DNA of 64,000 bases from a virus (taxonomy: Duplodnaviria > Caudoviricetes), in IMG/VR virus record IMGVR_UViG_3300021959_007005; one strand, given 5' to 3'. Below are positions 24,031 through 30,273 of the stretch, piece after piece (within the stretch, counting starts at the first letter, position 1; every line of letters starts with the position of its first letter). The translations under genes were made by a program, and so were the position numbers. The notes under the pieces were generated by a model. The model searched no databases and was not told the DNA's origin. It was given only the letters and a program-made list of their open reading frames with translations.

Positions 24031-25146
24031 ATGCCAAGACCTTTTGACGTAAGTAAATTCCGCAAAAGTATTACCAAAGCGGTGCCCGGACTAAGTGTTG
24101 GGTTTAATGATCCAGATACATGGATTTCAACAGGTAATTATACACTAAACAAACTAATCAGTGGAGACTTTAATAAAGGTATTCCACTAGGTAAAGTATC
24201 AGTATTGGCTGGAGAAAGTGGCGCAGGTAAGTCATATATTGCGGCTGGTAATATTGTTAAACAAGCACAAGACCAAAACATCTTTGTTGTGCTAATTGAT
24301 ACTGAAAACGCACTAGATGAGACTTGGTTACATGCACTGGATGTAGACACAAGTCCAGACAAATTGCTAAAACTTAACTTAGCAATGATTGACGATGTAG
24401 CCAAAGTTATGAGTGATTTTATGACAGACTACAAAAAAGAATGGGCAGACAAAGAAAAGGATGAACGTCCTAAAGTATTGTTTGTAATTGACTCATTAGG
24501 TATGATGTTGACGCCAACTGATGTTAAACAGTTTGAAGCAGGTGATATGAAAGGTGACTTGGGTCGTAAGCCTAAGGCATTAACGTCATTGGTTCGTAAT
24601 ACTGTCAATATGTTGGGAGAATACAATGTAGGACTAATGGCAACTAACCATACATATGCATCACAAGATATGTTTGATCCAGATGACAAGATTAGTGGCG
24701 GACAAGGCTTTATCTACGCAAGTAGTATTGTAGTTGCCATGCGTAAACTTAAACTAAAAACTGATGCAGATGGTAACAAAACATCACAGGTACATGGTAT
24801 TAGAGCGGCGTGTAAAGTAATGAAAACACGTTATGCTAAACCTTTTGAAAGTGTACAAGTGGAGATTCCATATGAGACAGGAATGTCACCATATAGTGGA
24901 CTTGTTGAGTTTTTAGAAGCAAAAGAGGTTCTTAAGAAAAGTGGCAATAGTTTAGAATATACTAGTCATGTAACTGGCGAAGTAATTAAAATGTTTCGTA
25001 AACCTTGGAATGCTAATAAAGATGGTGCTCTTGACCTAGTTATGACAGAATGGGATGACATCGCTGTTGACAAAGCAGCCGATGAACTAAATAACCAAGC
25101 TGATGACCAAGTATTAGAGGACAACGAATCATATGAAAATGAGTGA
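24031..25146 (+). CDS. uvsX: RecA-like recombinase (UvsX)
   Basis: GESGAGKS Walker A, IDTENA, VIDSLG, TNHTY, SGGQGFIYASS. Confidence 0.95.
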   Translation: MPRPFDVSKFRKSITKAVPGLSVGFNDPDTWISTGNYTLNKLISGDFNKGIPLGKVSVLAGESGAGKSYIAAGNIVKQAQDQNIFVVLIDTENALDETWLHALDVDTSPDKLLKLNLAMIDDVAKVMSDFMTDYKKEWADKEKDERPKVLFVIDSLGMMLTPTDVKQFEAGDMKGDLGRKPKALTSLVRNTVNMLGEYNVGLMATNHTYASQDMFDPDDKISGGQGFIYASSIVVAMRKLKLKTDADGNKTSQVHGIRAACKVMKTRYAKPFESVQVEIPYETGMSPYSGLVEFLEAKEVLKKSGNSLEYTSHVTGEVIKMFRKPWNANKDGALDLVMTEWDDIAVDKAADELNNQADDQVLEDNESYENE

Positions 25147-25845: not shown

Positions 25846-26057
25846 ATTGGATGGAAATTGATAAGATACTTCATAGTATGATTTCCATCTATAGTGATAA
25901 AGAGTTGTTGTATAGTGATGTAAAGAAAAAATTTAAATGGACTGATAGCCAAGTAGAAGCGGCTGTTGGTCCATTGTTACGATATAGTAACTTAAAGAAA
26001 GTTGAAGAAATAAAGCCTAAGGCTAAACCCAAAGCGAGGAAAGCAAAGAGAAAATGA
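25842..26057 (+). CDS. Hypothetical protein with a basic tail
   Basis: ORF track. Confidence 0.55.
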   Translation: MNWMEIDKILHSMISIYSDKELLYSDVKKKFKWTDSQVEAAVGPLLRYSNLKKVEEIKPKAKPKARKAKRK

Positions 26058-26476
26058 TTATAACAATAGCAAGTGATCATGGAGGTTACAAAACAAAACA
26101 AGCAATTAGTGAATGGTTAATGGACCAAGGACACAATGTTCGAGATTGGGGTTGTGATAGTGAAGAAAGTTGCGACTATCCAGACTTTGCTAAAGGTGTA
26201 TGTGAACTTGTAGCAACAGGCGCCGCTACCTTTGGTATCCTTGTTTGCGGTACAGGTATTGGCATGAGTATGACAGCTAATCGTAATCCAAAGATTCGTG
26301 CAGGGCTTTGTAAAGATACACATACTGCAATGCTTACAAGACAGCATAACAATGCAAATGTATTATGTTTGGGTGCTAGAGTAACTGATCCAGCTTGGAT
26401 TATTAACATAGTTGACACCTTTCTCACTACAGAATTTGAAGGTGGCAGACACGAAAAAAGAATAGAAAAACTTTAA
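26054..26476 (+). CDS. rpiB: Ribose-5-phosphate isomerase B
   Basis: IASDHGG, DYPD, CGTGIGMS, ANR, RQHNNANVL, FEGGRH. Confidence 0.95.
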   Translation: MIITIASDHGGYKTKQAISEWLMDQGHNVRDWGCDSEESCDYPDFAKGVCELVATGAATFGILVCGTGIGMSMTANRNPKIRAGLCKDTHTAMLTRQHNNANVLCLGARVTDPAWIINIVDTFLTTEFEGGRHEKRIEKL

Positions 26477-27214: not shown

Positions 27215-28078
27215 ATGGGTAAACTATGGATCTTTGGTGATAGTTTCACAAACGCACCATTAGAAAAAAGAATGTTAGTAAATGACTTGGTGTTTACAGA
27301 AGAAAGTAAAAAAGACTTTTCAATGACTTGGCAATCTTTATTATGTCAAAAACTTGGATTGTCTGAAATCTGTAATCACGGTATGCCAGGGATAGGATTA
27401 GATTATATTCAATGGAGATATGTTCAAGAAAGAACCGATATTGATAAAGAAAATGACGTTATTATAATTGGACACACAATGCCTGCTCGTAGATGGTTTA
27501 TACAAAAATCGCCAGAGCTTAGTAACTTTATTAATTTTATCAAAACAGATAGCACACTAAACATAGAATATCTTAAAAAAATGACATTACGTCATGATCA
27601 TGAAACAAGACAAAAGTCTCTTTATCAAGCAGAAGCGGCTAGGCAATATGTTATTAATATAGCTGATCCAGTAATGGAGGAATTGTACGGAGTATCTGTA
27701 TTAGCGTATTTTAATATGCAACAGCATGAGGGGTATCAAATAATTAATATCCCAATTTATGAAAATAGTGAAGTAACTAAATGGAATAATAATTTTAATT
27801 CAATTGGAAATTTAAATTCAGTTAGTGCTAATGAATGGCAATCAGAAAAAAGAGATGAACAAAGTCTTTGGACAGCATTTATGGATATTTGCGGTGGAGC
27901 TGACGGCAGGGTTAACCATCTAATAATGGATAACCATACTATACTAGCTGATAAATTATTTAAAACCATAACAGAAAATGAAACTTTAGACTTGACAACA
28001 GGGTTTATTTCTAATATAGTTAATGCAACAAGTTACGACAGTAAATATGATGTTTATAAAATGAAACAGGTCCCTTAG
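27215..28078 (+). CDS. SGNH/GDSL hydrolase-like protein
   Basis: IFGDSF block I, NHGMPGIG block II, NHL..NH near the C-terminus; stop codon lies inside tRNA-Arg. Confidence 0.6.
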   Translation: MGKLWIFGDSFTNAPLEKRMLVNDLVFTEESKKDFSMTWQSLLCQKLGLSEICNHGMPGIGLDYIQWRYVQERTDIDKENDVIIIGHTMPARRWFIQKSPELSNFINFIKTDSTLNIEYLKKMTLRHDHETRQKSLYQAEAARQYVINIADPVMEELYGVSVLAYFNMQQHEGYQIINIPIYENSEVTKWNNNFNSIGNLNSVSANEWQSEKRDEQSLWTAFMDICGGADGRVNHLIMDNHTILADKLFKTITENETLDLTTGFISNIVNATSYDSKYDVYKMKQVP

Positions 28079-28145
28079 CTCAGCTGGATAGAGCAAGTGC
28101 CTTCTAAGCACTAGGTCAGAGGTTCGAATCCTCTAGGGTCCGCCA
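28069..28145 (+). tRNA. tRNA-Arg(UCU)
   Basis: Cloverleaf; anticodon arm AGTGC-CTTCTAA-GCACT; GGTTCGAATCC; encoded CCA; U3:U70 mismatch. Confidence 0.93.
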
Positions 28146-28153
28146 GAATATGT

Positions 28154-28230
28154 ACTCCTCTAGCTCAATTGGTTAGAGCAGAACGCTCATAACGTTTTGG
28201 TTACAGGTTCGAGTCCTGTGGGGAGTACCA
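28154..28230 (+). tRNA. tRNA with CAU anticodon (Ile2-lysidine type or elongator Met)
   Basis: ACTCCTC/GGGGAGT acceptor stem, CTCATAA loop, encoded CCA; paired 1-72 so not initiator. Confidence 0.9.
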
Positions 28231-28235
28231 ATTAT

Positions 28236-28309
28236 AAGGGTGTGGTGAAATGGTATCACGCTGGTCTCCAAAACCAGAAGCAGGAGTTCGATTCTCCTCA
28301 CCTTTGCCA
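28236..28309 (+). tRNA. tRNA-Trp(CCA)
   Basis: CTGGT-CTCCAAA-ACCAG arm, G73, encoded CCA. Confidence 0.93.
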
Positions 28310-28318
28310 AAGTTTATG

Positions 28319-28490
28319 GTGCAGAGAACACCGCAGGAATAAACTGATAAGAGTAAACTGCAACGTTCTTTGTACAGTAGGAAAATCGTCGGAAGACTAG
28401 ATAGTTAAAATCTATGCATAGTCATATCTAGCTTCGACAGGCGTTGGAAATTAATAGGAGTAATTACCTAGTGACCTTCCTGAATCCTAC
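28319..28490 (+). ncRNA. Candidate structured RNA of unknown class inside the tRNA array
   Basis: Stems 28319-29/28365-75, 28377-82/28485-90, 28397-403/28425-31 and TAGG/CCTA; no convincing ORF. Confidence 0.5.
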
Positions 28491-28499
28491 AAGTGTTAA

Positions 28500-28589
28500 G
28501 GTGAGGTGGCTGAGTGGCCGAAAGCGCCGGATTACTAATCCGGAGAACGTGCAAGCGTTCCGTGGGTTCGAATCCCACCCTCACTGCCA
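28500..28589 (+). tRNA. tRNA-Ser(ACU), type II with long variable arm
   Basis: CCGGA-TTACTAA-TCCGG anticodon arm, GAACG/CGTTC variable arm, G73, encoded CCA. Confidence 0.92.
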
Positions 28590-28592
28590 GAT

Positions 28593-28676
28593 GCTCGCAT
28601 GATGGAATGGTAGACATAACAGACTTAAAATCTGTGGCCGTAAGGCGTCCCGGTTCGAGTCCGGGTGCGAGTACCA
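28593..28676 (+). tRNA. tRNA-Leu(UAA)
   Basis: ACAGA-CTTAAAA-TCTGT arm, long variable arm, A73, encoded CCA. Confidence 0.95.
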
Positions 28677-28701: not shown

Positions 28702-28776
28702 ATGAAAACTTGTCCAGATTGTAAAACAGAATTAGGTCATAACGATTTTTGTCCTAATTGCAGAGTAAAACGATAA
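28702..28776 (+). CDS. 24-aa zinc-ribbon microprotein
   Basis: MKTCPDCKTELGHNDFCPNCRVKR; TAAGTA promoter-like motif just upstream. Confidence 0.55.
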   Translation: MKTCPDCKTELGHNDFCPNCRVKR

Positions 28777-28777
28777 C

Positions 28778-28853
28778 GCCGCAATAGCTCAGTTGGTAGA
28801 GCAACTGATTTGTAATCAGTAGGTCCCGAGTTCGAATCTTGGTTGCGGCACCA
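28778..28853 (+). tRNA. tRNA-Thr(UGU)
   Basis: GCCGCAA/TTGCGGC acceptor stem, ACTGA-TTTGTAA-TCAGT arm, encoded CCA. Confidence 0.95.
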
Positions 28854-29667: not shown

Positions 29668-30273
29668 ATGGCTAATATTACAGAACTAGGTCAAGTTAGT
29701 AACAATATTTCTTTATATGATAAGTGCGTTATTGGTCTGGACAGAGATGGTGTAATTAATGTGGACCGAGGAACTTACACATTTAGATCTGCTGACTTCC
29801 AGCCTATACCTGGTAGTATAGAAGCAATAGCTAGGTTACGCAATGCAGGACATAAAATTGTGATCATCACCAATCAAGGTGGTATTGAAAAAGGTTTGTT
29901 TACTCCAGCTGATGTAGATAAACTTCATGAGTATATGTTTGAACTTCTAGGGAAGGCTGGATGCAGTAGTATTGATGCACTATATTATAGTACTAGTAGT
30001 CGAAAAGACGATATTTACGCTAAACCAAATTTAGGCATGTTTCAGCGTTGCCAAAAAGAACATCCACATATAAAATTTAAAAGTGGATTATATGTTGGAG
30101 ATAAACTTTCTGACATGAAAGCCGCTGTTAAGATAGGAGCTCGACCAATTTTAGTTAGAACTGGTTATGGAGAAGCTACAGAAAAGGAACTTCATAAATT
30201 TACGTATCGTTCTATTGCAAAGAAAGTATCAGTGGTTGACTCACTAAGTGCATTAGCTGATGCTATTACGTAG
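29668..30273 (+). CDS. gmhB: HAD IIIA phosphatase (GmhB/HisB-N family)
   Basis: LDRDGVIN, IITNQGGI, KPNLGM, VGDKLSD. Confidence 0.85.
   Translation: MANITELGQVSNNISLYDKCVIGLDRDGVINVDRGTYTFRSADFQPIPGSIEAIARLRNAGHKIVIITNQGGIEKGLFTPADVDKLHEYMFELLGKAGCSSIDALYYSTSSRKDDIYAKPNLGMFQRCQKEHPHIKFKSGLYVGDKLSDMKAAVKIGARPILVRTGYGEATEKELHKFTYRSIAKKVSVVDSLSALADAIT

Follow-up and report, generated by a model that had tools for sequence, protein, structure and literature searches.

We have analyzed a 64,000-nt stretch of viral DNA (the window) that carries a type II tRNA-Ser gene with the anticodon ACU on its plus strand (28500..28589). This gene is one more member of a large tRNA-Ser(ACU) family. According to a 2021 review, A34 is universally missing in the Ser-Arg split codon box, and phage tRNAs lack the same anticodons as those of bacteria (PMC8007984). 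The occurrence of tRNA-Ser(ACU) in the window, in more than 100 viral contigs, in many Patescibacteria and in cultured E. coli jumbo phages contradicts this rule. The reading that we prefer, and to which we assign a probability of about 0.7, is that the gene encodes a serine-charged tRNA whose unmodified A34 would read AGU only.

ARAGORN predicted a tRNA-Ser(act) at 28500-28589 (+), and the same interval matched the Rfam tRNA family RF00005 over the full model (1-71) with a score of 60.5 bits, against a gathering score of 29. The acceptor stem (1-7/66-72), as read from the sequence, consists of seven pairs, opens with G1-U72, includes the G2-C71 pair and is followed by the discriminator G73 at 28586 and an encoded CCA. 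The D stem has three pairs, including C11:G24. The anticodon stem CCGGA/UCCGG encloses the loop at 28532-28538 (TTACTAA; U32 U33 A34 C35 U36 A37 A38), within which the anticodon A34-C35-U36 occupies 28534..28536 (+). The variable region of 18 nt contains a stem of 5 pairs, and the T arm, GGGTTCGAATCCC, is standard. The intact long-arm serine tRNA with the loop UU-ACU-AA described in the original prediction is therefore borne out by ARAGORN, by Rfam and by our reading of the sequence, with one correction: position 28533, at which A34 was to be checked, is U33, and A34 is found one nucleotide further on, at 28534. G73 is present in 21 of 22 aligned Ser(ACU) genes. At 1:72 the window copy has G-U, whereas G1-C72 is usual in bacterial tRNA-Ser; its 22 relatives are evenly divided, 11 with G-U and 11 with G-C.

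The serine gene belongs to an array of six tRNA genes identified by ARAGORN, all on the plus strand, between 28069 and 28853. The first of them is tRNA-Arg(UCU) (28069..28145), which reads AGA, in the other half of the split AGN box, and which had correctly been listed before as carried by this phage. It is followed by tRNA-Met(CAU) (28154..28230; Rfam score 66.7 bits), tRNA-Trp(CCA) (28236..28309; 66.8 bits) and, after the serine gene and 3 nt downstream of it, tRNA-Leu(UAA) (28593..28676); tRNA-Thr(UGU) (28778..28853) is the last gene of the array. A consensus scan located a sigma-70-like promoter sequence (TTGACA, 17 nt, TATAGT; 27992..28020, +) with 11 of 12 consensus matches, 49 nt upstream of the first tRNA; since the scan overall was not enriched over shuffles, this sequence is regarded as a candidate only. 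The spacer between tRNA-Trp and tRNA-Ser (28310-28499, +) is 190 nt long, whereas most other spacers in the array are shorter than 10 nt. It is identical in two metagenome contigs described below (L002 and L005), and more distant relatives did not align to it. Between tRNA-Leu and tRNA-Thr is a 24-codon ORF (28702-28776, +) whose product is a mini zinc-ribbon peptide containing two CxxC pairs. Copies with about 71% protein identity that keep both CxxC pairs are found in two diverged viral contigs (L025, 9743-9814; L009, 11527-11589), within or adjoining their tRNA arrays, and the ORF may encode a genuine micro-protein that moves together with the array.

The window has a GC content of about 36%, and its genes include those for a tail sheath, a T4-type large terminase, helicases and ribonucleotide reductase. 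The nearest matches of the terminase are in jumbo myoviruses, namely Pseudomonas phage PA5oct (56% identity), Sinorhizobium phage Phosso (55%) and E. coli phage 121Q and its relatives (45%). Neighbours of the tRNA array encode RpiB (ribose-5-phosphate isomerase B; 26054-26476, +; E = 2e-58), a heptose-phosphate-type HAD phosphatase (29668-30273, +), a DUF454 protein and a 2OG-Fe(II) oxygenase-like protein. The rpiB and HAD phosphatase genes, which flank the array, resemble sugar-metabolism auxiliary genes. A Pfam PNK3P match had suggested an RNA-repair phosphatase for 29668-30273 (+); this assignment was rejected, as PHROGs and the adjoining RpiB point to a heptose/sugar-phosphate HAD phosphatase.

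Codon usage in the window was counted over 72 crude longest-ORF calls. AGT was said in the original prediction to be conspicuously common among the serine codons, and it does account for 644 of 1373 of them (47%), with AGC at 173 (13%). It is the most frequent serine codon in most of the 12 large window genes that were checked, and the gene at 24031-25146 has 15 AGT and 0 AGC codons. The same holds for other tRNAs of the array, which fit the most used codon for their amino acid (AGA, 39% of Arg; TTA, 41% of Leu; ACA, 48% of Thr), and each of the four codon-specific tRNAs in the array, Ser(ACU) included, thus fits the commonest codon of its amino acid. An anticodon matching a codon that is overused relative to the host is seen in the pair formed by phage 121Q (AGT 33%, AGC 6%) and E. 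coli K-12 (AGT 14%, AGC 27%).

For the expression, charging, modification state and benefit of this tRNA we infer the following. The gene would be transcribed together with the rest of the phage tRNA array, and the host seryl-tRNA synthetase would charge the product, which it would recognize by its acceptor stem, G73 and long variable arm irrespective of the anticodon. Serine identity is known to rest on the variable arm as its main element, on G73 and on the acceptor stem, and to be independent of the anticodon (PMC9976931), so that charging with serine is to be expected. A34 would stay a plain adenosine and form a Watson-Crick pair with the U of AGU, with the result that essentially AGU alone would be read. 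The modification t6A37, which is found in readers of ANN codons, would probably be gained as well. As the host tRNA-Ser(GCU) would still serve AGC, the phage could afford a one-codon reader on which no cell could rely alone, and a bacterium that keeps Ser(GCU) beside Ser(ACU) could likewise afford one. The payoff would be faster or more robust translation of the AGU-rich phage proteome, with the array acting similarly for AGA, UUA and ACA. For phage biology, this would be a clear example of a tRNA whose only sensible role is to supplement the host set.

Codon usage was also compared between viral loci with Ser(ACU) and control loci with Ser(GCU), 94 and 91 respectively among the matches listed; the loci are not phylogenetically independent and the ORF sets are crude longest-ORF calls. 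The median share of AGT among serine codons is 0.287 in the ACT loci and 0.185 in the GCT loci (p = 2e-11), and the median share of AGY is 0.455 and 0.331 (p = 2e-9). The ACT loci are also lower in GC (median 0.374 versus 0.402; p = 5e-4). After regression on GC, the AGT share is still higher by 0.086 in the ACT loci (p = 2e-8). Tuning of the tRNA to AGU, one of the two explanations put forward in the original prediction, is therefore supported by the rank of AGU as top serine codon and by this GC-corrected difference; in addition, an engineered ACU tRNA read AGU only in E. coli (PMC11066159). The higher overall weight of AGU in the ACT loci could, however, have arisen because the tRNA was present, and need not be what favoured the tRNA.

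A stronger bias for U over C in phages with ACT was considered and rejected: once GC is corrected for, ACT and GCT loci have AGT:AGC ratios that do not differ (p = 0.47). Thus, U-over-C bias does not explain why A rather than G is found at position 34. Among the loci listed, 65% of the tRNAs beside Ser(ACU) are U34 readers of A-ending codons, as against 47% in the GCT loci. A role of tRNA-Arg(TCT) as a competitor that guards AGA was also rejected, since this tRNA shows no link with Ser(ACU) (35 of 110 ACT and 37 of 109 GCT loci listed). The tRNAs for other two-codon boxes in the same ACT loci keep G34 (50 Asn, 18 Asp, 17 Tyr and 15 Cys genes among those listed), which shows that Watson-Crick tuning to U-ending codons is not a general rule. 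In bacteria, queuosine is present in several of the tRNAs for Asn, Asp, Tyr and Cys and may remove the need for A34 in them. Something particular to the AGY box may lie behind A34 in Ser(ACU).

The occurrence of tRNA-Ser(ACU) was surveyed with a pattern composed of a fixed anticodon loop and T loop (TTACTAA, 22-34 nt, GGTTCGAATCC), with tRNA calls by ARAGORN alone; the counts that follow are lower bounds and the ratios are rough. In IMG/VR this pattern recovered at least 110 genuine type II tRNA-Ser(act) genes, or 110 of the 116 new loci listed, and the viral loci listed form 53 clusters at 88% identity. When viral contigs were scanned with either A or G allowed at position 34, the 80 matches listed comprised 17 ACT and 63 GCT, so that roughly one-fifth of the pattern-matching viral AGY-type Ser tRNAs carry ACU. 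The same pattern applied to one genome per prokaryotic species found at least 86 real Ser(act) genes (86 of 120 loci listed). Most of the bacterial loci listed are in Patescibacteria MAGs, where Ser(act) often directly adjoins Ser(gct). tRNAs of this type are widespread, and the rarity implied by the original prediction is wrong. Its premise that A34 is largely limited to tRNA-Arg(ACG) agrees with reviews but is contradicted by the viral contigs and the Patescibacteria. Other anticodons that break the rules were seen in the listed viral Ser(ACT) loci (L011-L126): tRNA-Ile(TAT) in at least 19 loci, at least 2 Gly(ACC), at least 1 Phe(AAA) and at least 1 Thr(AGT). ACC, AAA and prokaryotic UAU are listed as missing anticodons (PMC8007984).

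Among cultured phages, 18 records from the 121Q group of E. coli jumbo phages contain a 92-nt Ser(ACU) gene, with identities of at least 99%. By terminase, PA5oct, Vibrio phage 2.275.O, Phosso and Cronobacter phage GAP32 are the nearest cultured relatives; none of these four matched the Ser(ACU) pattern, and only 121Q did. BLAST of the window tRNA region against cultured phages gave generic tRNA similarity only, and BLAST with representatives of three other Ser(ACU) clusters gave no match at E = 1e-12. In phage 121Q and other Asteriusvirus the gene is situated in a tRNA array and is annotated as 'tRNA-Ser(act)' (KM507819.1, gene 131). As in the window, it is a type II Ser tRNA with the anticodon ACU in an AT-rich jumbo myovirus in which AGU is the top serine codon. 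It is, however, the most divergent sequence in the 22-gene alignment and differs from the window copy in its loop (CUACUAA, with C32 instead of U32), in its longer variable arm and in that CCA is not encoded. The host of 121Q is known and can be cultured. These phages thus provide a natural system, tractable in E. coli, for asking why A34 tRNAs are avoided and what stops misreading in split boxes. We found no description of a natural tRNA-Ser(ACU) in the literature, which is weak evidence of absence, as bracketed names of this kind are poorly matched; since public records such as that of 121Q annotate the gene, it is unremarked rather than unseen. Calls of Ser(ACT) in phage genomes should not be dismissed as annotation errors.

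The bacterial and phage tRNA-Ser(GCU) is like Ser(ACU) in isotype, long arm, G73, A37-A38 and codon box, but its G34 reads both AGC and AGU where the A34 of Ser(ACU) should read AGU only. The two nevertheless form separate groups of sequences. When the anticodon was masked, 118 of 122 viral and 83 of 85 bacterial ACT genes among the matches listed had another ACT gene as their nearest neighbour. The closest ACT-GCT pair among these matches is 85% identical, and the GCT tRNA nearest to the window gene is 76% identical to it. From these nearest neighbours and the distance of the closest ACT-GCT pair, Ser(ACU) is a maintained family and not a scatter of recent G-to-A mutations. A FastTree phylogeny of 449 Ser tRNAs contains at least 32 switches between ACT and GCT, a figure on which we do not rely because 90-nt sequences give trees of low resolution; the counts of nearest neighbours are more robust. 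Patescibacterial ACT genes have a median best identity of 0.78 to viral ACT genes and of 0.56 to their own neighbouring GCT genes; this closeness is partly due to the shared search pattern, and a common origin is therefore not claimed.

The family also has its own signature in the anticodon stem. Of the Ser(ACU) genes among the matches listed, 100 of 103 from viruses and 79 of 79 from bacteria have A:U or U:A at 31:39; G:C at 30:40 is found in 99 of the 103 viral and in all 79 bacterial genes. Ser(GCU) genes found with the same pattern are more variable at both pairs. Both pairs might serve to tune A34 decoding, or they might be traits inherited within the family. It is possible, although we put this forward only tentatively, that Ser(ACU) is a distinct and old isoacceptor lineage of phages and Patescibacteria that breaks the ban on A34 in split boxes, and that its role in phages goes beyond codon matching. 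It might then be a private AGU channel that survives the loss or cleavage of the host Ser(GCU), or it might be tuned through 30:40 and 31:39 to read AGU without touching AGA or AGG.

An explanation that we consider unlikely is counter-defence, in which an anticodon nuclease of the host or of a competitor would recognize tRNA-Ser(GCU) by its G34 and cleave it, and a resistant A34 copy would keep AGU decoding going. Changes in the anticodon loop that escape tRNases are documented in phage tRNAs of other isotypes (PMC10264068), and such a role would fit the distinctness of the Ser(ACU) family from Ser(GCU), as well as the preference for A over G that U:C codon bias leaves unexplained once GC is controlled. 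We found no nuclease targeting Ser(GCU) in the literature, however, and the paper on evasion names Ser(gct) as not targeted in mycobacteria (PMC10264068). Judged on the literature alone, the window tRNA does not belong with the nuclease-escaping phage tRNAs of van den Berg et al. 2023. No gene for tRNA repair, modification or defence was found among the genes around the array, the HAD gene at 29668-30273 being heptose-phosphate-phosphatase-like. An A34 tRNA also cannot replace the reading of AGC, and the retention of Ser(ACU) by Patescibacteria beside their own Ser(GCU) argues for a role in decoding. The suggestion in the original prediction that the change from G34 to A evades a host anticodon nuclease is thus unsupported, both by the known nucleases and by the gene content beside the array.

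It is very unlikely that A34 is simply tolerated. On this explanation the host covers AGC, so that a G34-to-A change in a supplementary tRNA would cost nothing and could drift in without any advantage. The lack of a difference in AGT:AGC ratio between ACT and GCT loci once GC is controlled is compatible with such drift, and G-to-A changes are favoured in AT-rich genomes. A neutral site would be expected to flip back and forth, yet the viral and bacterial ACT genes taken together have an ACT gene as nearest relative in 201 of 207 cases among the matches listed, and even the closest ACT-GCT pair listed reaches only the 85% identity given above. A34 is kept, moreover, across at least 53 sequence clusters and in relatives whose stems have diverged.

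Conversion of A34 to inosine, by host TadA or by a phage deaminase, would yield a tRNA that reads AGU and AGC, and possibly AGA; we regard this as highly improbable. The textbook A34 tRNA of bacteria is tRNA-Arg(ACG), a TadA substrate in which A34 is also encoded by the gene and which has the same U33, A34, C35, A37 and A38 as Ser(ACU), and an orthogonal tRNA with the anticodon AUG was about half deaminated in E. coli (PMC5137457). tRNA-Arg(ACG), however, has G36 and works as ICG. The recognition motif of TadA is U33-A34-C35-G36, carried on a stable anticodon stem, and G36 is strictly preferred (PMC10586758). This motif is absent from the window loop, which reads U33-A34-C35-U36; Ser(ACU) is thus predicted to stay A34. 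The concern that an ICU anticodon would misread AGA was a legitimate one in the original prediction, but such misreading is unlikely given the requirement of TadA for G36 and the behaviour of an engineered tRNA in E. coli.

This engineered tRNA, an orthogonal M. jannaschii tRNA with the same ACU anticodon as here, provides the only direct data on ACU decoding. It reassigned AGU at 9.4% and AGG at 0.36%, with AGC and AGA below detection, and only T was seen at position 34 by RT-Sanger, so that A34 was not deaminated (PMC11066159). It differs from Ser(ACU) in having an artificial, tyrosine-charged archaeal body, and it competes with the full tRNA set of the host. A natural bacterial tRNA that keeps a plain A34 is the Mycoplasma tRNA-Thr(AGU) (cited in PMC11066159). 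That tRNA belongs to a four-codon box and reads ACU, ACC and ACG, where loose reading is harmless, unlike Ser(ACU), whose box is split with Arg. Inosine in Ser(ACU) would put serine at AGA, which makes up 39% of the arginine codons of the phage, and the Ser(GCU) that adjoins Ser(ACU) in bacteria would be redundant if ICU read AGC. Finally, no deaminase gene was seen near the array.

The relatives of the window gene were collected from IMG/VR with its anticodon arm as the query and position 34 left as N, a search that returned 10 contigs. Eight of these contain a complete tRNA-Ser, and all 8 have A34; in one of the other two the copy is cut by the contig end, and in the last the match is not a tRNA. 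As position 34 was N in the pattern and was still A in 8 of 8, A34 was not selected by the search. A pattern restricted to the D arm found ACT in 11 of 13 complete tRNAs and added three further Ser(ACT) genes with altered anticodon stems. Two of the relatives, L002 and L005, come from different metagenomes, match the window over 5 kb at about 97% identity and have an identical tRNA-Ser gene; they are independent metagenome contigs of the window's own phage. The other relatives have in common with the window, by BLAST, only tRNAs and patches at 73-89% identity. In these diverged relatives the serine gene itself is 82-98% identical, with flanks that are either at 73-89% or cannot be aligned.

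Diverged relatives with serine genes 88-95% identical to that of the window show compensatory changes in the stems. Compensatory changes among the close relatives are found at acceptor pairs 3:70, 4:69 and 6:67, and A34 is kept while the acceptor and anticodon stems change. In the alignment of 22 diverse Ser(ACU) genes, double compensatory changes occur at 15 of 27 predicted pairs. From this pattern of substitution, the window tRNA-Ser(ACU) is a real tRNA under selection. A sequencing or assembly error, which GCU in close relatives would have betrayed, or a decaying pseudogene is practically untenable, nothing having been found in its favour, and is refuted by the identical gene in two contigs of different metagenomes with flanks about 97% identical, by A34 in all of the diverged orthologues, and by the full cloverleaf, the covariation and the high Rfam score.

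Two further observations were made in the contigs of the relatives. The exact anticodon-arm sequence of the window tRNA-Ser, but with T at position 34, is found in L007 (4647-4665, -), where it adjoins a tRNA-Met and received no tRNA call from ARAGORN; it could represent either the remains of a tRNA or a coincidental match. Permuted, two-piece tmRNA genes are present in L003 (3368-3876), L004 (10522-11030), L006 (4929-5274) and L010 (2196-2703), a few kb from the Ser(ACU) gene in each, with tag peptides that end in ALAA. These genes hint at a host with a tmRNA of the alphaproteobacterial type.
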